A stretch of DNA of 64,000 nucleotides from the IMG/VR virus record IMGVR_UViG_3300050016_000100, positions 9,145 to 73,144 of that record; one strand, given 5' to 3'. Shown here in pieces: positions 2,889-25,969 of this stretch (the stretch's first letter is position 1; the number at the start of each line of letters is the position of its first letter). Made by a program: the position numbers and the translations under genes. The notes under the pieces were generated by a model, which saw nothing but the letters and a program-made list of their open reading frames with translations, made no database searches and had not been told where the DNA came from. This DNA comes from a virus.

Positions 2889-4956
2889 CTATCTCGGCTC
2901 GTGCTGTTCGCACCATTTGTCCGCGTGCGTAAGTGGCACGGCGTCATTCCATTTCAGTCCGCGCCACTTTGCAAAGCAGATTGCCGCGTGTCCGGGCGAG
3001 AGTGGAGCAAAATGCCTACACGTCGCACAAGTTGGGGTTAGATAATCGTGCGCCACCTCTGCAGCCTCTCGATCTTGCGGTGCGCCGCGCATCAAATTCT
3101 CCTATTTCTTTAGCGCGTTCATAACGAAACGGGCCTGCCGTCGATACTCTTTCCTCTCACGCGCAGCAAAAGCCTCGCGCCAATAGCGGTCGCTAAACTC
3201 ACGGCGGCCTTTGTCGGTTAGACCGGCGCGGGCGAGTGCCTTAGCTGCAATCTCAGTTTGGCTTTCCTTACGCACCGATTTCCTCCTATATATCGTCGGA
3301 CTTATCTGGGCAAACGTGAGCCATCGTCTTTTCAAGACGCACAACGCGCTCTTCAAGTGACGGCTTATCGTAAGAATCATTTTCCGGCACAATCCGGTAG
3401 CCGATGTTGGCGGCGATCCGCGTGGCGAACACTTCCTGCGCTTCGCAGCGCAGTTTAAGAATTTCCGCTAATAGACCATTTTCGCCGTGCGTTAAGATCA
3501 CGAAATTCTCCTTTATCTCTTGACCGTATCAGCGGCAATCTTGAGCGCCAACGATATTGCGTTCCATTCGGTCTTGTTCATGTACCAAACCGGAGCGTTG
3601 CGCGGCAGCTTGCGTTGCCGGTCAAATTCTTTCTTGACCTTGAGATAGGTCGCACGGCTGAAATTGCGCCGTTCCTTTTTGTAAGCCGCCTTCTGCTTTG
3701 CGGTCCACGACATCAAATTCTCCTGCTCTGTTAGTCACGCTTTCCGAAATGCGTGTACATCCAACCGCGCTTAATCCACCTCAACCCTAGAGCATGGATT
3801 GCGGCCAATGCCTCCTTTTCCTACTCAGTTAACCGGCGGCGACCATCGGCTCGCACCAGGCAGTCGCCTCCCCTACAGCCATTTTAGCGCCACCGATCTT
3901 GTGTCTAAAATTGACATGCAAGCAACCGTCCACATGGCAGAAGCATAACGGTTCGGTGAGTGCGATTGAGTGCGGCTGAGCCGCGCCGGGTTCCTCCTAA
4001 GATGGGTGGTTGTATTGGAGAACATATTTTTTGGCTTCATCCTTGTTCACGTCCTTGCCATCCCAATCGAGGTGGATGGTCTCGCAATCAAGTTGGTCAA
4101 TTAGCTCGCACAGAATGAGCCGCCGATCAGCGTCAGGATGATCCATCGCGCAGGACATCGAGACACCATCCGCAAAAAACCGCTCAAGGATTTTGACGGA
4201 CTTATCGGTGAAGCCGCCCCATCCCTTGATCGTTCCCCACTTAAGCGTCAGCGACTCGGCCATCGTGATCAGCTCCTACTTTGTTAAGCGATAGCCGTAG
4301 CAATCGCGGCCCCAGAACAAGCGCGAGCCACATACGAAAGAGTCTGGTTCCGGCACTTCATGGCAATAATAGTATTTGGTGTCGGCCTCATTCGCAGACA
4401 TGGCATTGCTGATGCGCGTCGAAACTTTCTCACAGCTTTCCAGGCTATCGAAATCCGAGACGTTGACCCGTCGCTCCATCGGGGTGCCTGCAAGAAACAC
4501 CACCATGAGAAGATATTTCACGGTCACTCCTATGCCTCGTTGGCGATTACGGACAACTTGCTCGCTGCCGATATGGTGACGTGGACTTCCTCTTTGCGAT
4601 CTGGAAACGCCAAGCCAATCCACAAGGTCTTGTCGTCCATCATTTCCATGTGGACAAACGGACCAGCCGCGACAAGTTCATCGAACGCGCCAGCTTCGTC
4701 GGGCCGCGTAAAGATTTTGCCATCCACCCACGTCTTGTCGATATGTTTGCCCAAGTCGGCTCCTTTTTCACCAACTCATGTGCGGTAAGAAATGTGACGC
4801 GGCGATCAGCGCCGCAACGATCAGGCCGCCGATCACGTAGGGCGCAACGCCGGAAGTTTGACCTGGCGCGTCACTCATGCCAGAAGCGAACAGCCCAAGC
4901 AGCCCGAGAGCGAGTGAGAGTAACGCGACGATTCCTGCGATTATAAATGCAACCAT
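2889..4956 (-). other. Run of tiny leftward hypothetical ORFs (about 2889-3092, 3102-?, 3286-3501, 3513-3713, 3997-4263, 4276-4521, 4530-4754, 4768-4956)
   Basis: Most are preceded by an AGGAG RBS, often with the upstream stop codon embedded in it. Confidence 0.65.
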
Positions 4957-4971
4957 GTTTCAGTCTCCTGC

Positions 4972-5301
4972 TCATTCAACGGTTGCGTGAACTTTTGACG
5001 GCGCGAGCATCTTCACGAAGATACTGATGTCGGTTTTCTTCTCGATGACCGGGCGGAACGCTTCTGCCCAAAACCATTTCTCTTGATCCGGTGCGTCTCT
5101 GAATGGGACAATCGGATTCACAATCTCGGCCAAGTGAACATGCTGCCGACCATCCTTGCCGATGCGGGTATCGCGCACGGTGTAAATCAAACCGCGCTTC
5201 GGCGTGACGACTTTCCAATAGGCACACCATGCGGCCCAATCGAAGCCGGGGCTACCTTCGGTTCCGATGCACACTACTTTCTGTCCAACGGTGAAAGCCA
5301 C
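4972..5301 (-). CDS. Hypothetical protein (F.VGQKVVCI...EIVNP...FRPV..KTDIS family)
   Basis: RBS plus GTG; paralog at 30267-30602. Confidence 0.75.
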   Translation of the reverse strand: MAFTVGQKVVCIGTEGSPGFDWAAWCAYWKVVTPKRGLIYTVRDTRIGKDGRQHVHLAEIVNPIVPFRDAPDQEKWFWAEAFRPVIEKKTDISIFVKMLAPSKVHATVE

Positions 5302-9134: not shown

Positions 9135-9600
9135 GGCCTCTATATCCAAGTTGATTACGCGAGAAGCCCCTTGAGAGCTTCAGCGAATTTTCTCGTTTCT
9201 TCGTTATCCAGCTCGCGATGACAAAGTTGCTCGCGCTTGCCGTCGTTTTGCGCGGTCGGCTCTGTCCGGTAGACGCGGAAGGACGTGCGGCCCATCGCGC
9301 AAAGAGTAGTGGAAAACTCAATCTCCACCGATCCCCAACGCATCGGTCCCGGCTCACCTTTCCCGGCTTCGGTCCCGCAATAAAGTGAAACGCTTGCCAT
9401 GTGTGGGTAATCCTCTAGGTGTGAGCGTGACTTTTCAACCATGCCAAAACTTCGACAACGGCGGGGTCTGGTTTGTCGGGCCATAGTACCGGGTCAAAGG
9501 CTCCGTAACCGCGAATGACCTGATGCTGCGCCTCATATCGCGAAAGTGTCTCGAAGCATTCGAGGAACCGGGCAATTTGCGCTGCGGTTGGCATGGCGGC
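9135..9600 (-). repeat. Copy 1 of a 466-bp direct duplication carrying two ORFs (9415-9594, 9155-9400)
   Basis: Matches 11473-11938; one mismatch seen. Confidence 0.95.
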
Positions 9601-18279: not shown

Positions 18280-18301
18280 TCCACAACAGAGAAGACGAAC
18301 G

Positions 18302-18769
18302 ATGTCGAAGAACCGGAAGAAGGCGAAGAGCGGAAAGGCGGCACCGAAGCAGGAGCCGGTCAAGTCGTCGGAGGTCACGCAGCAGATCAGCGCCCGGAAG
18401 CTCTGTTCTCTGCTGGCGACAGCGCGCTCGACCTACAAGGACGTCCGCGAGATCGCCGGCGCGTTCGGCGCCGAGGTCAAGAACGCGGCCGAGCACGAGC
18501 ATCTGAACAAGAAGGCGTTCAGCATGGTCAAGACGCTAGACCGGATGGAACCGGAGAAGCTCGCCGACACGCTCGACTCGCTCGACTATTACCTCGACGT
18601 CTCCGGTCTGCGGAAGCGGGCCTCACAGGTCCAACGCCTGCCGATGGGCGGCGGCGATGAGGCGGCCGAGGAAGAACACGACACCGAGCCGGCGCGCGAG
18701 GGCGCGAAGGCCGGTAACGGTCATGCGGACAAACCGATGCCGGCGCCCGTCGGCGCGAGCGCAGACTGA
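18302..18769 (+). CDS. GapR/DUF2312-like DNA-binding protein (tentative)
   Basis: A....LNKKAF..V..L..ME......LD.Y....G pattern. Confidence 0.4.
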   Translation: MSKNRKKAKSGKAAPKQEPVKSSEVTQQISARKLCSLLATARSTYKDVREIAGAFGAEVKNAAEHEHLNKKAFSMVKTLDRMEPEKLADTLDSLDYYLDVSGLRKRASQVQRLPMGGGDEAAEEEHDTEPAREGAKAGNGHADKPMPAPVGASAD

Positions 18770-18772
18770 TCG

Positions 18773-19204
18773 GTGCGGTGGACGGCGAAGCAGCTAGCCG
18801 AGCACGACGCGCGGCGGGGGATCAAACGGCCTCCCGCAGCGCCCGCGTCGAAGACGCCTGGTCACGCCCGGCTCGCGCTCGGGCGCCTCCCGACCGGGAC
18901 GATGAACAAGACCGAGGCGGCCTACGACGCCCGCCTCCGGGAGCTCACCCACGCCGGCGAGGTCCTCTGGCACAAGTTCGAGGGGATCAAGCTCCGGCTC
19001 GCGGATAATACGTTCTACACTTGCGACTTCGCCGTCCTGCCGAGGTCGGGAATCCTTGAGCTGCATGAAGTGAAAGGCGGCTTCTGGACGGACGACGCAC
19101 GGGTAAAGATTAAGGTCGCGGCGGCGCTCTATCCGTTCAAGTTCATCGCGGTTAAGGTCAGGGCGAAGAAGCGCGGCGGCGGCTGGGAGACGGAGGAGTT
19201 CTGA
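18773..19204 (+). CDS. DUF1064-like PD-(D/E)XK endonuclease
   Basis: MNKTEAAY, YTCDF, HEVKGGFW..DARVKIK. Confidence 0.8.
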   Translation: MRWTAKQLAEHDARRGIKRPPAAPASKTPGHARLALGRLPTGTMNKTEAAYDARLRELTHAGEVLWHKFEGIKLRLADNTFYTCDFAVLPRSGILELHEVKGGFWTDDARVKIKVAAALYPFKFIAVKVRAKKRGGGWETEEF

Positions 19205-20526
19205 TGAAGGGCCTGCGCTCGATCCGCCCCCTCCCGCGCGATTCGCTCCGCGGCATCGAGTTCGCGAAGGTCGGGAAGAAACTCCCGAAGTTCGAGATCA
19301 TCGACCCGGAGTCGATCTACGTCGAGGATTCCTACCAGCGCGCGATCATGAAGACCGGGCAATCCCTGATCCGGAAGATTTGTGAGAACTTCGACTGGAG
19401 CCACTACAAACCGCCGGTCTGCGTCCGCGTGAAGGAAAGCGGCAACGTTCTCGTTTGCATCGACGGCCAGCACACCGCGACGGCCAGCGCGTGCCACCCC
19501 GACATCGAGAAGATCCCGGTCATGGTCGTCGACGCTGCCGACGTCCCGAAACGCGCGGCCGCCTTCGTCGGGCACAACAAGGACCGGATCGGGCTGACGA
19601 CGGTGATGATCTACCACGCCGAGCTCGCCGCGCAGGACCCGGACGCGGTCGTCATCGATCGCGCGCTGCGCGCGACCGGAGCGTCGATCCCGAAGCGCGC
19701 GATCTCGACTTCTGGGAAGGAAAAGCACCCGGTCGGCGTGACGATGTCGATCGGCGCGATCCGCGCGATCGCGAAGCGGCAGGGCCAGGACGCGCTCGAG
19801 CGCGTCCTTCGGCTCATGGTCGCGGTCGGGCGAGGACCGATCAAGTCGGTCGAGATTACGGCGGCGGCGTTGATCTTCGCGATCTACCCGCCGCCGATCG
19901 ACGACAAGCTCCGCAAAATCATCATGCGGAAAACGGCGGAGGAGTGGACTGCCTTAGGCTACGCCGAATCCGTCGCAAGCGGAAAGGCGATCGCCGTCGC
20001 CGTCGCGGCGATGTGGTGCCGCGAGCTCGGCGTCGAAGCTCCGGACCCGGGCGTGAAGGGCAACGCGACGGACCACGCCCGGCTGATCGTCGGACAGGCG
20101 CAGAAGAAGATCGCCCCCGCGCCGAAGCCGATTCCGCCGCCGCCAGCACCAGCGGCGAAAGGTAACAATCCCGCGCCTAAAGGTTACAATCCGCCCGTCT
20201 CGGCGGCCGCTCCGGCACCGGCGGCGCCGCAGCTCATCGAGCGGAACGGCGTCAAGGTCGACCTCGAGCTCGGCGCTATCTTCCACCGGAAGAAGGCCGC
20301 ACGCCTCTCGGACGAAGGCGCTACCCTGGTCGGTGCGCTCGCGCGCGTTATGCCGGCGATGCTAGTCAACGACGACCTGGCGCGGAAGGTCTGGGGCAGC
20401 GCGATCGACTCGACTAACCGGATCGACGAGCTCGTTAAGCAAGTCGCCCCCGCGCTCGCGTCTGTTGACTTAAAAGTCAACACCGTCCCGAAGCTCGGCC
20501 GGACCCTCGCGGCGGTCGGGGGATAG
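19204..20526 (+). CDS. ParB/Srx-like (DUF6551-type) protein with C-terminal wHTH
   Basis: VEDSYQR..F.W..PP..IDGQHT..A..F...N. Confidence 0.7.
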   Translation: MKGLRSIRPLPRDSLRGIEFAKVGKKLPKFEIIDPESIYVEDSYQRAIMKTGQSLIRKICENFDWSHYKPPVCVRVKESGNVLVCIDGQHTATASACHPDIEKIPVMVVDAADVPKRAAAFVGHNKDRIGLTTVMIYHAELAAQDPDAVVIDRALRATGASIPKRAISTSGKEKHPVGVTMSIGAIRAIAKRQGQDALERVLRLMVAVGRGPIKSVEITAAALIFAIYPPPIDDKLRKIIMRKTAEEWTALGYAESVASGKAIAVAVAAMWCRELGVEAPDPGVKGNATDHARLIVGQAQKKIAPAPKPIPPPPAPAAKGNNPAPKGYNPPVSAAAPAPAAPQLIERNGVKVDLELGAIFHRKKAARLSDEGATLVGALARVMPAMLVNDDLARKVWGSAIDSTNRIDELVKQVAPALASVDLKVNTVPKLGRTLAAVGG

Positions 20527-20594
20527 CGGGGACATTGGCTGGACCGGCTCCCCGATCCGACGCTAGGCTCGGTCGGTCGAATCGGGACCCCTTC

Positions 20595-21260
20595 ATGCAA
20601 GAGCTATTTCGAGGTGCGCGGCGCGGTCACTTCGCTTGCATAGCAATCGACGATGATTCGGCTATGCTCGAACGCGGAACGGCGGCCGAGCACATCGTCT
20701 GCGCTGATTTGCTCCTGCGGCGTTATCGGGCCTATTTGGCCGGACATGGGCTTCCCTATGACGTCGTCGCGGATTGCTTCGGCCGCCTTTCCAGGATTCA
20801 GGTAAAGGGAACGCTCCAGCCGAAGAACGTCAGCGCGAAAGGTCGCGCTCCTCGGCTCGCTTATAGCTGGAACATTAGGAAGCGCGGGAAACTTCGGGCA
20901 CGGAGACTGACCAATGATCAGTGCGACGTTATTGCGCTGGTGGCACTAGACATCCGCGCGGTTGCCTATTTCCCGGTCGCAGTCTGTAAGCAGACTGTTC
21001 AGCTTTTAGCTCCTGGCGGTCGACGCGCGCGAAGTGGCCGGCGTGGATTTTTGGGTGATGTCAGTCAATACCCGCCCGAACCCGCGATCCGTCAGCGCCA
21101 CGGGTTTTATAAACTGGCGCCGCTCCCTCTCGAATGTCCCCACGGTCATAAATGGACGAAGCGAAACACGATTCAGCAAAAGGGTAGCGGGCGATCATGC
21201 CGTGAATGTCTTCGAGCATCGGCACTTCGCCGTTCGCATCGGAGATCAAAAGGTGACTGA
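20595..21260 (+). CDS. PD-(D/E)XK homing-type endonuclease
   Basis: G.AAE..V.ADL, PYDVV, RIQVK motifs; C-terminal CPHGH..N..CREC zinc ribbon. Confidence 0.8.
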   Translation: MQELFRGARRGHFACIAIDDDSAMLERGTAAEHIVCADLLLRRYRAYLAGHGLPYDVVADCFGRLSRIQVKGTLQPKNVSAKGRAPRLAYSWNIRKRGKLRARRLTNDQCDVIALVALDIRAVAYFPVAVCKQTVQLLAPGGRRARSGRRGFLGDVSQYPPEPAIRQRHGFYKLAPLPLECPHGHKWTKRNTIQQKGSGRSCRECLRASALRRSHRRSKGD

Positions 21261-21861
21261 TCTTTTTCGGGGTGCAAAAAAACATCATTATGGCTGCATC
21301 GCCGTCGACCCGCCGTGGCATCACGGGACATGGTCCGACAAGGGCCGCGGGCGATCCGCAAAATACGACACGATGACCCTCGCCGAGATCGCCGACCTGC
21401 CGGTCGCCGACTACGCGGCGAAGAACGCGTTCCTCTTCCTCTGGATCACCGGACCGTTCCTCGCGCTCAGCGTTCACGCCTCGATCATGCAGGCCTGGGG
21501 CTTCGAACCAAGCGCGGTCGCTTACGTCTGGATGAAGCCGACCCGCAAGGGCTACGAGCAAGGCCACCTGTTCAACTTCCTCGACGATCCGAAGCTGTTC
21601 AAGATGGGCATGGGAAAAACGACCAGGCAGAACGCCGAGTTCGCGATCCTTGGCCGACGCGGATCGCCGCGGCGCCTGAGCGCTGGCGTACGGCAGGAAA
21701 TTATCGAACCGGCACGCGAGCACTCGCGCAAGCCCGAGCAGTTCTACGAGAAGGTCGAAGCCTTCTGCGCCGGGCCGAGGCTCGACATATTCGGCCGGCA
21801 GCGTCGGCCCGGCTGGACCGTCATCGGCAACCAGGCCGACAAGTTCGGAAGGGCCGCATGA
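21253..21861 (+). CDS. MT-A70 family adenine methyltransferase
   Basis: DPPW, LFLWIT, WGF, W.K, EHSRKP, LDIFGR..RPGW..GNQ. Confidence 0.92.
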   Translation: MTDLFRGAKKHHYGCIAVDPPWHHGTWSDKGRGRSAKYDTMTLAEIADLPVADYAAKNAFLFLWITGPFLALSVHASIMQAWGFEPSAVAYVWMKPTRKGYEQGHLFNFLDDPKLFKMGMGKTTRQNAEFAILGRRGSPRRLSAGVRQEIIEPAREHSRKPEQFYEKVEAFCAGPRLDIFGRQRRPGWTVIGNQADKFGRAA

Positions 21862-22067
21862 CGAAACGGATGCGCGCTCACGAGATCGAACGGAGGGCCC
21901 GAGCGAAGCGGTCATCCGCGCTGGCGCGTAACGAATTGCGCCAGCCTTCGGTCCCGCGCGTCTCCGCTGCTGGGCCGACATCGCCTGCGATCAAGGCCGA
22001 GGACCCGGCGATCCGCGCGATGATTGACGCCGCAATCGCGGAACGGAAGGCGCCCGTCGATGATTAG
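21858..22067 (+). CDS. Hypothetical protein
   Basis: ATGA overlap with the MT-A70 stop. Confidence 0.5.
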   Translation: MTKRMRAHEIERRARAKRSSALARNELRQPSVPRVSAAGPTSPAIKAEDPAIRAMIDAAIAERKAPVDD

Positions 22068-22341
22068 GGTGCCCCCGCCGGAGCAATATACCGCCGCGCC
22101 GAAGCTGACGATGCAGATGCGCGCCCTACTCTGGAAGTTACAAGAGACGGGCGGGAATCTGAGATCGACCTACGGCACCGGATTCGTCATCAGGTCGCAC
22201 AATAGATTCGAGGACCGTGCCGTTCTTGTGTTCTGGACGCCAAAACGAGTCCGCGATGCGGCGATCCGATTTGGTTACGTGGACGAGCGCGGTCGACTCA
22301 CCTCCGCTGGCCGTGCAGCACTGAAGGAAGGGACGTCATGA
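22060..22341 (+). CDS. Hypothetical protein
   Basis: Overlaps neighbours; RBS upstream. Confidence 0.55.
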   Translation: MIRVPPPEQYTAAPKLTMQMRALLWKLQETGGNLRSTYGTGFVIRSHNRFEDRAVLVFWTPKRVRDAAIRFGYVDERGRLTSAGRAALKEGTS

Positions 22342-23147
22342 CCGATGATCGATTGCCTTGGTTTCATTGCTATCCGGAAAAGTGGCTTGCTGCGCTCGCC
22401 GAAATGAAACCTGACCAAGGATATGTCTATTGGATCATCTGCTTGCGCATCTATGAAAAACGCGGCCCGATCCCCGACAGCACCGAAGCATTGGCGCGGC
22501 GCATTGGCTATCGGCCATCGCACATTCAACGCATTGTCGAAACCCTTTGCGCGCTCGGCAAGCTAATCCGGACGCCGGATGGTCGGCTGACAAACCCATT
22601 TTCTGAGCAGGAAATTCTCTCCGGTGCGCAGATTGCGTCACGAACGCGTACGATTCGAACACACGCCGCGAATATATCGTGGCAAAAACGTAAACAAAAT
22701 CAACACAACGGCCATGCACATGCAATGCAAAACGGTACACAGTTAGATATAGACTCAGAGACAGAGATAAAAGAAGAAGGAAAAGAACCATCGCTCGCCC
22801 TAACGGGCGGCGATTCTACTCCCTCGGACGGATGGCCTAGTCATGCGTGGGAACAGTTCTGGGGCAAATATCTGCACAAGGTCGGGAAGGCTGATGCCAA
22901 AAAAGCGTTTGACCGCGTTCGACGCGCGCGGATCGTAACATGGGCCGAGCTCGAGGCTGGACTTGATCGCTATCTCGCGAAGACTGACGACCGGCCGTGG
23001 TGCAATCCTTCGACGTGGCTGAATCAGCACCGATGGGCGGACCAGCCAGCGCAAGTGGTATCGACACGCGCGCGCAGTGGAGGTGGGTTTGCAGCGGTTG
23101 CACGGCGACTAGGACAATCTGAGCGAAACCAGGGAGGCGAACGATGA
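22338..23147 (+). CDS. Replication initiator (YdaU/DUF1376-like)
   Basis: LPWF..YP..WL, G.Y..I; C-terminal FW..Y..KVGK..A..PSTWLNQHRW.D. Confidence 0.8.
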   Translation: MTDDRLPWFHCYPEKWLAALAEMKPDQGYVYWIICLRIYEKRGPIPDSTEALARRIGYRPSHIQRIVETLCALGKLIRTPDGRLTNPFSEQEILSGAQIASRTRTIRTHAANISWQKRKQNQHNGHAHAMQNGTQLDIDSETEIKEEGKEPSLALTGGDSTPSDGWPSHAWEQFWGKYLHKVGKADAKKAFDRVRRARIVTWAELEAGLDRYLAKTDDRPWCNPSTWLNQHRWADQPAQVVSTRARSGGGFAAVARRLGQSERNQGGER

Positions 23148-23962
23148 CGGCTATGCCAGCGGTCCGAACGACCGGTGAACTCTATCCGGCGACAACAAGC
23201 GTCGAGATGCACCAGTTCATGTCGGCGGTTATTACAGGCGAGCGGGACGACCGCTACAATGCGATCCTGCGAAGGGCGCTGACGCCAGCGGAACGGCAGG
23301 CGCTGACGAAGCGCGCAGGTGAGATCGCGCCGCTTCTGGAACGGGCGCAGTACCGGAAGTCGGCGAAGATCATCTCCGAGATGCTGGCGGGGTTCGGATC
23401 GTCGCGGGCGAGTGAGGACGAAGCCGAAGTTGTCGCCGCGCAATATGCTGCAGCACTCGCTGGACATCCGCTCTGGGCTATCGAACGGGCGTGCGGGCGG
23501 TTCTCGCGTGGCGAAGTCGATGCCGACGAGGTCGGCGCGAAACACCTGGACCGTGCGTTCGCGCCGTCGACTGCGCAGCTCGCGATGATCGCGAAGAAAA
23601 TCGTCAAGCCATTCGAGGACGACCTCATTCGGATCAAGATGATCTGCGGCGGAACGGTTGTGCCGGAGGAGATCAGCCCGGAGGAGCGCGAGCGTGTCGG
23701 CAAGAAGGTCGCAGCCTTCGCTGCCGAGCGCCGGCGCGAAGAGGACTCGGCCGACGAAGAGCGGCGCCAGTCAACGCAGCGTTCGCTCGAGAACACGCGC
23801 AATCTGGTTCTGGCCGAGTATCGGCAGGCCGGCATCGCGCCAGTCTATAGCGATAATGGAACGCTCTGCTCGATCTCGCTCTACCGCTCGCTCGGCTACA
23901 CGATCGAGGAGATTGACGGAAGGCGCGCGCTCGTCGCACCGGCGAAGGCGGCCGCGCCATGA
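23144..23962 (+). CDS. Replication-associated protein (helicase loader/inhibitor-like)
   Basis: Y..AL..HP.WAI..AC, FAPS.A.L; located after the initiator. Confidence 0.55.
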   Translation: MTAMPAVRTTGELYPATTSVEMHQFMSAVITGERDDRYNAILRRALTPAERQALTKRAGEIAPLLERAQYRKSAKIISEMLAGFGSSRASEDEAEVVAAQYAAALAGHPLWAIERACGRFSRGEVDADEVGAKHLDRAFAPSTAQLAMIAKKIVKPFEDDLIRIKMICGGTVVPEEISPEERERVGKKVAAFAAERRREEDSADEERRQSTQRSLENTRNLVLAEYRQAGIAPVYSDNGTLCSISLYRSLGYTIEEIDGRRALVAPAKAAAP

Positions 23963-23985
23963 GCGACCATCCGATCATATTCAGT
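23959..23985 (+). pseudogene. 5' stub (MSDHPIIFS) of a phage gene interrupted by IS1595
   Basis: ATGA overlap, cut off at the IS end. Confidence 0.5.
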
Positions 23986-24685
23986 GGGAATTATACGCTT
24001 GACTCCCGTGCCGTTTTGGGCTAGATTTTGAGCCTGAAAAGAGGTGTAAATCATGAGTAAATCCACTGTTTCGACCTTCGAGATTTTCGCCATGTTTCCC
24101 GACCAAGAGGCCGCCCGGACCTACCTTGAAGGCCAGCTTTGGCCCAATGGTCCTACATGCCCGGTCTGCGGCCTTGGCGAGCGCATTACAGCGCGCAAGG
24201 GCGGCTTCTTCAGGTGCAATCAATGCCAAGAGGACTTTACCGTCCGCACGGGCACCATTTTCGAGCGCAGCCACATTCCGCTGCACAAGTGGCTTTACGC
24301 CATGTATCTGCTGCTCACCGCCCGCAAGGGAATTTCCAGCCTTCAACTCTCGAAAGAGATCGGCATCCGCCAAGGCTCGGCGTGGTTCATGCTTCACAGA
24401 ATCCGTGAAGCCTGCGGCGGCGACCTGACCAAGCTGCAAGGCATCGTCGAAATCGACGAAACTTACATGGGCGGCATCGAAGGCAACAAACACAAATCCA
24501 AGAAGCTGAATGTCGGCGGCGGCACGGGCGGCAAGGCCGCCGTCCTCGGCATGAAAGAGCGCGGCAAAGGCGGTCGCACTAAGGGCTTCAAGATCGAAGC
24601 AACCGACGCGCAAACGATCCGGGACGTGATCGTGCAGAACGTCGAGGTTGGTTCGACGCTGCACACCGATGAACACCTTGCCTAT

Positions 24686-25969
24686 CATGCCTATCCGGTT
24701 GACGCACACAGGTACTAGATGTTGATGGAACACACCGAGATTTTGGCGGAAGGCATCACCCAATATGTAGGGGATTGCCGCGACGTGCTGCGCACGTTGC
24801 CGCCCGAGTCCGTGCATTGCTGCGTAACCAGCCCGCCCTATTTCGGCCTGCGGGACTATGGCACCGCGACATGGGAGGGCGGAGACCCTACTTGCGACCA
24901 TCTGAGGCCCGCCGCGCACGGTTACAAGCCGTTTGAAACCTCTACCCTCGGACCTAAAGCCGATGGAATTTCCGCCGACAATTCCGCCCATGCCGATGCC
25001 GTCAAGCGCCAGCAATACAAGGGCACTTGCTCCAAGTGCGGCGCTCACAGGATCGATAGTCAGATCGGTCTTGAGCCGACGCCCGCCGCCTTCGTTTCCG
25101 AGTTGGTAGGTGTGTTCCGCGAGGTCCGGCGCGTTCTCCGCACGGACGGGACGCTGTGGCTCAACCTTGGGGATTGCTACTGCGGAGCAGGGTACTCGAA
25201 TCACACGTTGGAACGGAACGGTGCGGCGCAACGCGCGGACGGCGGCAAACAAAAGCACGGCACCGTGTGCCTGGATGGCCTCAAATCCAAGGATTTGATC
25301 GGTATCCCGTGGATGGTTGCCTTTGCCCTTCGTGATGATGGCTGGTTCCTGCGTTCCGACATCGTGTGGAACAAGCCGAACCCAATGCCGGAAAGCGTGA
25401 CCGACAGGCCGACACGCTCCCATGAATACCTGTTTTTGTTGACCAAATCGGCACGGTATTTTTACGATCACGAAGCCATTGCCGAACCCGCCACAATGAA
25501 GCCGCAGGCTCGGTTGACGCCGCGCGATTTTGTGAACGGGAAAGACGCTGGCAGGGCCGCGCACCGCCGTCCCGATTATCGAATCCGTGACGATGCCGAA
25601 CAGGAAAACGCGACCCGCAATAAACGATCCGTTTGGGAGGTCACTACCAAGCCTTTCGCGGGTGCCCACTTTGCAACCTTCCCGCCCGACCTGATCGAGC
25701 CGTGCATCCTCGCTGGATGCCCTGCGGATGGCACTGTGCTCGATCCTTTCGGCGGGGCTGGCACAACAGCCCTTGTCGCTGATCGCCTGCACCGCCGCGC
25801 CATTCTGATCGAACTGAACCCCGAATATGCGGCGATGGCCGAACGGCGTTTCCGGTCGGACGCGGGAATGTTTGCGCGTGTCGAAACCGTCAACACTACA
25901 GGTAGACCATGAAGGGAACACTAGATGTGGTGTCATTTTCGACCTGTGTGCGTCAACCGGATAGGCATG
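24686..25969 (+). mobile_element. Non-autonomous IS1595-derived cassette (MIC) carrying a DNA methyltransferase
   Basis: Perfect 28-bp TIRs (24686-24713, 25942-25969); 8-bp TSD TTGCCTAT (24678-24685, 25970-25977). Confidence 0.92.
24725..25912 (+). CDS. N4-C/N6-A DNA methyltransferase (beta class)
   Basis: VTSPPY motif IV precedes DPFGGAGTT motif I. Confidence 0.92.
   Translation: MEHTEILAEGITQYVGDCRDVLRTLPPESVHCCVTSPPYFGLRDYGTATWEGGDPTCDHLRPAAHGYKPFETSTLGPKADGISADNSAHADAVKRQQYKGTCSKCGAHRIDSQIGLEPTPAAFVSELVGVFREVRRVLRTDGTLWLNLGDCYCGAGYSNHTLERNGAAQRADGGKQKHGTVCLDGLKSKDLIGIPWMVAFALRDDGWFLRSDIVWNKPNPMPESVTDRPTRSHEYLFLLTKSARYFYDHEAIAEPATMKPQARLTPRDFVNGKDAGRAAHRRPDYRIRDDAEQENATRNKRSVWEVTTKPFAGAHFATFPPDLIEPCILAGCPADGTVLDPFGGAGTTALVADRLHRRAILIELNPEYAAMAERRFRSDAGMFARVETVNTTGRP

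Follow-up and report, generated by a model that had tools for sequence, protein, structure and literature searches.

A candidate homing element with a substitute gene start inside a phage MT-A70 methyltransferase gene

Why would a phage gene for a DNA methyltransferase carry two versions of its own beginning, with a nuclease gene lying between them? The question is raised by a locus in a 64,000-nucleotide stretch of viral DNA (the window), which covers positions 9,145 to 73,144 of the 73 kb IMG/VR record IMGVR_UViG_3300050016_000100. Here, a nuclease open reading frame (ORF) of 221 codons plus TGA (20595–21260, + strand) is followed by an intact MT-A70 DNA methyltransferase (methylase) gene of 202 codons (21253–21861, + strand), and the two proteins open with similar leaders. 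The original prediction, drawn from the letters of the DNA, was that an intron-less homing endonuclease had inserted in frame into the catalytic DPPW codons, kept the old start of the methylase and supplied it with a recoded 5′ end. We consider it probable that a homing-type selfish element does lie inside the methylase gene and that, together with the steps by which it would spread, it accounts for the locus as a whole. The support for this interpretation comes from architecture and from comparative evidence.

Two leaders at one methylase gene

The nuclease ORF extends from an ATG at 20595 to a TGA at 21258–21260 and comprises leader A, a PD-(D/E)XK core and a C-terminal Cys/His module; its protein begins MQELFRGARRGHFACIAID-DDSAMLERG. 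The methylase is read on the same strand from a GTG at 21253 to position 21861, and its protein begins (M/V)TDLFRGAKKHHYGCIAVD-PPWHH, which places the DPPW motif at residues 19–22 (21307–21318). The co-oriented genes overlap at 21253–21260, where nuclease stop and methylase start are combined in GTGACTGA. By direct reading, a GGAG within the nuclease ORF (21241–21244, + strand), 8 nt before the GTG, serves as the methylase ribosome-binding site. The layout is thus as first described, with one leader fused to the nuclease and a methylase that has its own diverged leader, a new ribosome-binding site and a GTG overlapping the nuclease stop.

Leader A (20595–20651, + strand) consists of the ATG and 18 codons, the last of which is the Asp codon GAC at 20649–20651. 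Leader B (21253–21309, + strand) consists of the GTG and 18 codons, ending with the Asp codon at 21307–21309; its bases 21253–21260 are shared with the end of the nuclease ORF. Compared codon by codon, the leaders agree at 11 of 19 residues and 33 of 57 bases (58% DNA identity), and six of the 11 common residues are encoded by different codons. The protein similarity is far beyond chance, with a Smith-Waterman score of 68 (z = 11.8 and 14.4 against shuffles) that none of 500 shuffles equaled. The DNA similarity is weak, as the 97-nt local score of 13 is equaled by 2.7% of random windows. Past the Asp codons the sequences are unrelated (GATGATTCG... on the A side, CCGCCGTGG... on the B side). 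The leaders are therefore alike in protein and diverged in DNA, and their similarity ends at the D of DPPW, as the original prediction stated. The ribosome-binding region was considered as a further part of the duplicate and rejected: the agreement between the 40 nt preceding each start is matched by 20–23% of random windows, so these regions are not significantly alike and no duplication is claimed for them.

A search of 20300–21500 against Rfam returned no match at E values up to 1, indicating that the element is not an intron, in keeping with the intron-less endonuclease of the original prediction. An intein is ruled out by the nuclease stop and the separate methylase start; moreover, direct reading finds no Cys or Ser at the window junction and no Cys, Ser or Thr after it.

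The methylase itself appears complete. It matches the full PF05063 MT-A70 profile (positions 1–172 of 172, E = 3.2e-25) and PHROG 359 (E = 1.9e-58), is called MTase_II by PADLOC, and retains every invariant column of its seven-member alignment. We note that the database gene call for this protein (P0167; 21373–21861, 162 residues) starts at internal Met 41 and lacks DPPW, a mis-start that was likely caused by the overlap of the true GTG with the nuclease ORF. Similar short calls, such as P0170, which starts MAIDVPW, may conceal the same layout elsewhere.

Relatives of the methylase identify the leader that belongs to the gene. A protein search yielded relatives of up to 74% identity, and the nearest uninterrupted ones share the pattern M(H)ELFRG..HFACIAID followed directly by PPW. 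P0169 (MHELFRGLKLGHFACIAID, then PPW), P0168 (..MHELFRGLRRGHFGCLVID, then LPW) and P0171 (..NLFRGLRKQHFACIAID, then PPW) are each encoded by one uninterrupted ORF. Leader A is identical to these three proteins at 15, 14 and 13 of 19 residues, respectively, and leader B at 11, 9 and 10. Among the 13 relatives that have a full leader and are at least 60% identical in the body, leader A is closer in 12, one is a tie and leader B is closer in none; over all relatives with a full leader (93 of 119), leader A is closer in 65 and leader B in 14, with 14 ties. The best match to leader B among these 93 leaders is 11 of 19 residues. The same break is seen within the methylase, which agrees with P0169 at 11 of the first 20 residues (leader B) and at 16 of 20 in the next block. 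Leader A, for its part, shows 74–79% protein identity to relatives that are 73–74% identical in the body. Because leader A is nearer to the uninterrupted relatives, these protein comparisons mark it as the orthologous, resident 5′ end of the gene and leader B as the outlier, a divergent replacement. The comparison with nuclease-free alleles that was originally suggested thus finds leader A joined directly to PPW in the closest relatives at the protein level, and agrees with the proposal that the nuclease kept the old methylase start. The replacement of the 5′ end in the methylase is likewise borne out. The term “recoded” fares less well, since leader B may have been imported from another methylase lineage instead of being recoded in place.

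Many of the closest MT-A70 relatives (P0168, P0170, P0174–P0177 and others) carry DVPW or DLPW at motif IV. If the nuclease reads the motif IV codons, such alleles could be naturally resistant.

The nuclease family and its methylase neighbors

The nuclease core (residues 27–132; 20673–20990, + strand) belongs to the I-Ssp6803I family, PF11645 (PDDEXK_5). It aligns to profile positions 6–108 of 138 with 27.4 bits against a gathering cut-off of 26.1, a narrow margin for a single sequence; 35 of the 44 homologs from a protein search carry a precomputed PF11645 label. In an alignment of 23 of these homologs with the window protein (24 sequences), E32, D56 and K71 are invariant and Q69 is nearly so. 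We take these to be the catalytic E...D...(E/Q)xK residues of the fold. When the profile of the 24 members was compared with the PDB, the sole match was 2ost (E = 0.011), with the active-site stretch YD...VQVK aligned to 2ost residues 33–60. The AlphaFold model based on the same alignment has a pLDDT of 85.3. Its fold starts at residue 21, and residues 1–18, in leader A, have pLDDT values below 50 and are predicted to be disordered. Foldseek places 2OST chains (I-Ssp6803I) at ranks 1–4 (E = 5.6e-7 to 3.2e-5, target-normalised TM 0.57–0.61), followed by archaeal Hjc Holliday-junction resolvases and SPARDA nuclease domains. No match was found for the nuclease among PADLOC defence-system and NCBIfam models.

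The C-terminal Cys/His module (21090–21251, + strand) contains the pattern CPHGH..N..C..C and a basic helix. The last 55 residues match positions 157–208 of PHROG 826, “HNH endonuclease” (E = 1.4e-9), and are modeled, with pLDDT of about 85–95, as two short strands plus a helix. This module is probably DNA-binding. It is present in some homologs only (P0003, P0004, P0006, P0008 and P0010) and looks like a swappable DNA-binding add-on.

Most of the aligned homologs begin about ten residues ahead of a conserved G-AAEH motif. Longer N-termini are found in P0017, P0019 and P0020; these resemble the starts of N6_N4 methylases, with V(T/S)D as their last residues. The MQELFRG leader of the window was seen in none of the 23 aligned homologs and in none of 79 other viral loci, so the free-standing nucleases with the same leader that would have contradicted the original prediction were not encountered. 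A methylase leader is found on a nuclease only if a methylase gene comes next, and its type is that of this methylase (MT-A70, N6_N4 or PHROG 799).

These 79 distinct loci were retained from 196 relatives in a scan of viral contigs, giving 80 loci with the window; in each of them the gene is recovered by the nuclease core profile. Ten downstream ORFs were typed as N6_N4 (PF01555, five), MT-A70 (PF05063, two) and PHROG 799 “DNA methyltransferase” (three, with no Pfam match), and were used as seeds to count methylase ORFs within 400 nt of the nuclease. Such an ORF lies downstream in 36 of the 80 loci, including the window, upstream in 41, on both sides in four, and on at least one side in 73. 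The seven loci with neither are L045, with just 52 nt of upstream flank, L072 and L075–L079 (L numbers denote viral loci). A single nuclease family with 40–60% core identity is paired with three methylase families, between which no Pfam or PHROG model is shared. In a tree of 64 distinct cores, the nuclease clades follow the methylase type: all 12 MT-A70-linked nucleases fall on one side of a branch with support of 96/81, and the methylase label changes nine times, compared with a mean of 25.5 for shuffled labels.

Duplicated gene starts recur among these loci. The leader of the methylase was compared with the three frames upstream of the nuclease core in 27 distinct downstream-methylase loci plus L038. 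A second 5′ leader precedes the nuclease in 14 of the 28, in frame in ten and out of frame in four. The in-frame leaders are those of the window (z = 14.4 against shuffles), L010 (9.4), L007 (4.1), L004 (3.7), L005 (3.3), L001 (3.3, partial), L016 (7.3), L024 (25), L031 (27) and L038 (8.7); the weakest three calls have z of 3.3–3.7. Out-of-frame remnants stand before nucleases with their own start in L006 (z = 9.0), L068 (11.7), L036 (14) and L063 (16.4), and stop within 2–12 codons, except that of L036, which runs on to the end of the compared stretch. Each remnant matches the type of its own methylase. The other 14 loci have no upstream remnant and their nucleases have a short N-terminus of their own. 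On the nuclease tree, fused forms are interspersed with out-of-frame forms and with forms that lack a remnant.

The position of the break is the most consistent feature of these loci. In 13 of the 14 remnants, from both MT-A70 and N6_N4 methylases, the left junction lies within one codon of the D of DPP[WY], which agrees with the insertion point originally proposed. The remnant ends in ...IAID in the window, ...ILADP in L007 and L010, ...ILATD in L004 and L005, and ...VVTD or VITD in L024, L031 and L038. Among the out-of-frame cases, L063 ends in ...SIVTD followed by 12 codons and a stop, L036 in ...VVTG, L006 in ...LIMG and L068 in ...AILA. L001 aligns up to DP, where its nuclease reads SP, and is counted at DP.

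A junction exact to the base in DNA is provided by L024, which carries an N6_N4 methylase. Of 120 protein homologs of this methylase, 119 have the motif; 93 of the 119 end DAVVTD before PPY and 84 have LGDC. Leader A of L024 is identical to this consensus, and its leader B (LADC..DGVCTD) is a rare variant in the family. Compared with the nuclease-free locus L186, the A side of L024 is identical at 74 of 96 bases up to the D codon GAT and unrelated beyond it; the B side is identical at 63 of 96 bases before the D codon, and the match resumes at CCG CCC TAC. The two L024 leaders agree with each other at 61 of 96 bases. L024 and L031 share features specific to leader A as well as features specific to leader B, which suggests that the whole unit of leader A, nuclease and leader B is inherited or moves as one.

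The nuclease is rare among alleles of this methylase family. From 80 viral loci, 13 duplicates, six with less than 700 nt upstream (three of them also allele repeats) and L130, which lacks the motif, were removed. Three of the remaining 60 distinct alleles carry the nuclease. A Cys within four residues before the D is present in all three nuclease-bearing alleles and in four of the 57 nuclease-free alleles (Fisher p = 0.001); the three belong to one nuclease clade and are therefore not three independent events. We also observe that a different N6_N4 methylase (L051-like, E = 4e-51; about 3000–3870 of L024) lies directly upstream of leader A and ends 135 nt before the nuclease core, so that this phage has two methylase genes flanking the nuclease element.

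For the MT-A70 methylases, a protein search with the window gene gave 37 viral loci, the best of them 52% identical, and a scan of genome contigs gave two loci (50% and 46% identity). The nuclease core profile found no nuclease within about 3 kb in any of 39 MT-A70 loci.

Elsewhere in the window, a 221-residue ORF at 24053–24718 (+ strand) has a CxxC...CxxC N-terminus and presumably resembles a fragment of an IS1595-type transposase. The long ORF opposite and overlapping it (23981–25936, − strand) is probably spurious, the DNA being GC-rich.

A proposed mechanism and its alternatives

The proposed element would consist of the I-Ssp6803I-family nuclease gene and a substitute ribosome-binding site, start codon and leader B, and its insertion point in catalytic motif IV falls exactly after the D codon and before the PPW codons. 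The resident beginning of the gene (leader A, 19 codons including the start) would have stayed behind upstream, here in frame with the nuclease, so the nuclease is probably translated from the old methylase start as an enzyme with a disordered 19-residue tag. The methylase would be made via leader B from the GTG that overlaps the nuclease stop, and so stay whole. During co-infection, the nuclease may recognize conserved DNA around the motif IV codons of nuclease-free methylase alleles and cut them at or near the D/PP codons. Repair of the break from the element-bearing genome would then copy in the nuclease and leader B. Leader B would be carried so that the invaded gene remains functional and the rebuilt site differs from the target. 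Because the left half-site would now be either the junction of leader A with the nuclease or the divergent leader B, the invaded allele would escape re-cutting. The sporadic presence expected of homing is seen in the absence of the nuclease from all 39 MT-A70 loci, its occurrence in three of the 60 alleles of the L024 family, and the uninterrupted genes of the closest relatives.

As to its origin, the element may have started as a free-standing nuclease upstream of a donor methylase. Homologous repair would have taken place on the right side only, and the break end on the left would have been joined into or before the 5′ end of the nuclease. Such events would yield both in-frame and out-of-frame forms and leave the left junction at the cut site.

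Several observations weigh against this account or narrow it. Nuclease activity, homing and cleavage resistance are properties that we infer from comparison, and leader B has no recognisable “immunity” signature in the window. The Cys pattern in the L024 family rests on three related alleles of a methylase family other than that of the window, and in L038, a fused locus of another subfamily, it is leader B that has the naive-like DAVVTD end. L016 (PHROG 799) is the sole exception to the junction rule. In this locus (3896–5028; L017 is an identical copy), the nuclease is in frame with a duplicate of the first ~20 methylase residues, the two leaders reading ..LKAHVWAREKDD and ..LRQSHIWERDPED, the latter continuing into FYVEP. 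The junction follows ...WAREKDD, with no NPP or DPP motif there; as it lies well upstream of the DPxCGxG and NPP motifs, the target would differ in PHROG 799 methylases. The in-frame insertion of the original prediction holds for the window and is not general: with four of the 14 remnants out of frame, fusion is not required. Selection for in-frame fusion was considered and set aside, as about six of ten lineages, grouped by hand on the tree, are fused, which is not clearly more than one third given that the counts are small and the lineages not independent. In the window, the junction is fixed at the protein level only, because no close DNA relative of the phage was found: blastn of 18300–23200 against GenBank phages matched only the DUF1064 gene, and the upstream 440-residue protein gave no viral locus. 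The single public run that holds the stretch, a peat metagenome and probably its source, contains one identical contig and no nuclease-free variant or joint, which weighs neither way. Finally, linkage of a PD-(D/E)XK nuclease with a methylase is also expected of a restriction-modification pair.

Such a pair, in which the nuclease would be a restriction or exclusion enzyme working with the adjoining methylase, seems quite improbable here. It would readily explain why a methylase adjoins the nuclease in 73 of 80 loci, the overlapping co-oriented genes would permit coupled expression, PADLOC calls the methylase MTase_II, and PD-(D/E)XK is the commonest fold of restriction enzymes. Yet one nuclease family accompanies three methylase families with no Pfam or PHROG model in common, and lies on either side of the gene; it is present in just three of the 60 L024-family alleles and in none of the 39 MT-A70 loci, and it matches no PADLOC model. 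The only characterised relative, I-Ssp6803I, is a homing endonuclease, and a restriction pair leaves unexplained why duplicated gene ends break at the D/PP codons. A local tandem duplication of the methylase 5′ end, followed by divergence and the chance capture of a nuclease between the copies, would account for the repetition of the same 19 codons at a distance of 658 bp. We give this very little credence: the copies are only 58% identical in DNA, with synonymous change saturated, while leader A is still 74–79% like its relatives; nothing in this lineage closely matches leader B; and the same layout recurs with different methylase families.

A history closer to the proposed homing element, although still unlikely in our view, is that the locus is the relic of a one-off imprecise repair. 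A free-standing homing endonuclease would normally sit just upstream of the methylase, and only the right side of the break would have found homology; the left end, ...IAID, would have been joined without homology into the 5′ part of the nuclease gene, in frame by chance, leaving leader A as dead baggage. The predicted disorder of leader A fits this, as do the 14 downstream-methylase loci in which a nuclease with its own short N-terminus shows no remnant, the four out-of-frame remnants with their early stops (L036 again excepted), and the intermixing of all three forms on the nuclease tree. The features shared by L024 and L031 in both leaders argue for an inherited or mobile unit instead, and from the junction to the nuclease core, direct reading of the window reveals no convincing in-frame start equipped with a ribosome-binding site. 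The relic differs from the favored homing element only in the origin and the importance of the fusion; both need a nuclease aimed at D/PP.

Relation to known elements and significance

Homing endonuclease genes have been thought to persist within genes only by means of self-splicing introns or inteins, or else to lie between genes. The closest parallel to the present locus comes from the mORFs of fungal mitochondria, in which an endonuclease ORF together with an inserted C-terminal sequence replaces the native one in atp6, atp9, cox2 and nad3 (PMC3630166). The cases are atp6, atp9, cox2 and nad3 of Glomus and, as cited therein, a hybrid atp6 gene of Allomyces macrogynus; the native end has been moved downstream and resembles relatives more closely than the inserted one does (PMC3630166). 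In the mORFs as in the window, an endonuclease ORF sits in a conserved gene without intron or intein, brings a foreign gene end that is expressed, and may be in phase with the host gene. The native end likewise remains as a displaced duplicate nearer to relatives, as leader A does in the window and in L024, where the naive allele matches side A at 74 of 96 bases. The mORFs replace 3′ ends, encode LAGLIDADG or GIY-YIG enzymes and occupy mitochondrial respiratory genes. In the window, by contrast, the 5′ end is replaced and the enzyme is of the PD-(D/E)XK type; the element resides in a phage, where its target is a DNA methyltransferase gene at the catalytic motif. With the 5′ end replaced, the nuclease inherits the start of the host gene. 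By analogy, the element of the window mirrors a mORF in a phage setting, but its nuclease fold and its class of target are different.

Within the same nuclease family, a 3′-end version seems to exist as well. Of the 41 loci with a methylase upstream, 38 have the N6_N4 type and three the PHROG 799 type (L055, L056 and L059). The former include L011–L015, L018–L023, L026–L029, L032, L033, L040–L042, L046–L050, L053, L058, L060–L062, L067, L069–L071 and L074; among the 38, L024 and L025 have a separate whole methylase upstream, and L036 has only its own leader remnant. Methylase homology ends 50–195 nt ahead of the nuclease core in the upstream-methylase loci. In L050 (nuclease ORF 3764–4462), about 55 C-terminal methylase residues are found on both sides of the nuclease (3705–3800 and 4490–4660; z = 25), the duplicated block reading ..KP.....SKSRDIVLDP.GG.GTTMVAAER.GRRARL.ELDP.YVDV.V.RWQ. 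This alignment gives L050 a mORF-like appearance; its sister locus, L047, lacks the downstream copy. A 25-member clade of upstream-methylase nucleases, which includes L045 with its upstream flank too short to tell, has N-termini such as MQQSLFE, QLTLFD, LGLLFD and RQLSFLD (L014, L032, L048, L058, L012 and L053). We presume that these resemble the sliding-clamp-binding motif QL[SD]LF.

Other systems share single features with the window. The gene for I-Ssp6803I lies in a group I intron within a cyanobacterial tRNA gene. The window nuclease resembles this enzyme in its PF11645 assignment, in the YD...VQVK stretch and in having 2OST as its best structural match; it differs in lacking an intron, in its C-terminal Cys/His module and in residing in a protein-coding gene. 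The seg and mob free-standing homing endonucleases of T4-like phages, and the mobE-split nrdA of phage Aeh1, are further reported cases of homing without an intron, beside or within a conserved phage gene, in which immunity comes from differences in the target sequence. These are said to lie between genes or to split a gene into two working pieces, and we know of none among them that provides the gene with a new end. Among integrating elements, prophages in tRNA genes and SXT in prfC do restore the interrupted gene with a substitute end, so that the target gene is functional; they use integrases and attachment sites, as opposed to a nuclease with break repair here. The ShiLan domain, a hidden HNH endonuclease in an actinophage DNA methylase gene, is likewise a non-intron, non-intein endonuclease element in a phage methylase (PMC11855218). 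It differs in being translated in frame within the methylase, with the HNH nuclease of another family encoded in another frame, and the passages available from that source report no duplicated gene end (PMC11855218). Neither PF11645 nucleases next to methylase genes nor a 5′-end replacement by an endonuclease element was described in the literature searched.

Taken together, the loci lead us to favor, by a modest degree, a wider interpretation in which a branch of the I-Ssp6803I family consists of dedicated parasites of phage methyltransferases. These nucleases would home into the codons of the best conserved motifs, DPPW or DPPY (5′ version) or a C-terminal block (3′ version), in at least three methylase families with no common Pfam or PHROG model, carrying a pre-diverged, cut-resistant gene end; the 5′ version would also take over the start of its victim. 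No intron or intein would be needed, because the element brings a replacement for the gene end that it displaces.

If true, this would be the phage counterpart of the fungal mORFs and a general third way for endonuclease genes to persist within essential coding sequence, beside splicing and intergenic placement: the gene end cut off by the insertion is replaced. In the literature searched, gene-end replacement has been documented only for the 3′ ends of fungal mitochondrial genes. The interpretation predicts natural nucleases with long recognition sites centered on the DPPW or DPPY codons, and it explains odd gene calls, such as a methylase called from an internal Met without its catalytic motif. 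Phage methyltransferases, which are key anti-restriction genes, would then be a battleground for selfish elements and a route by which gene ends are exchanged between phages.

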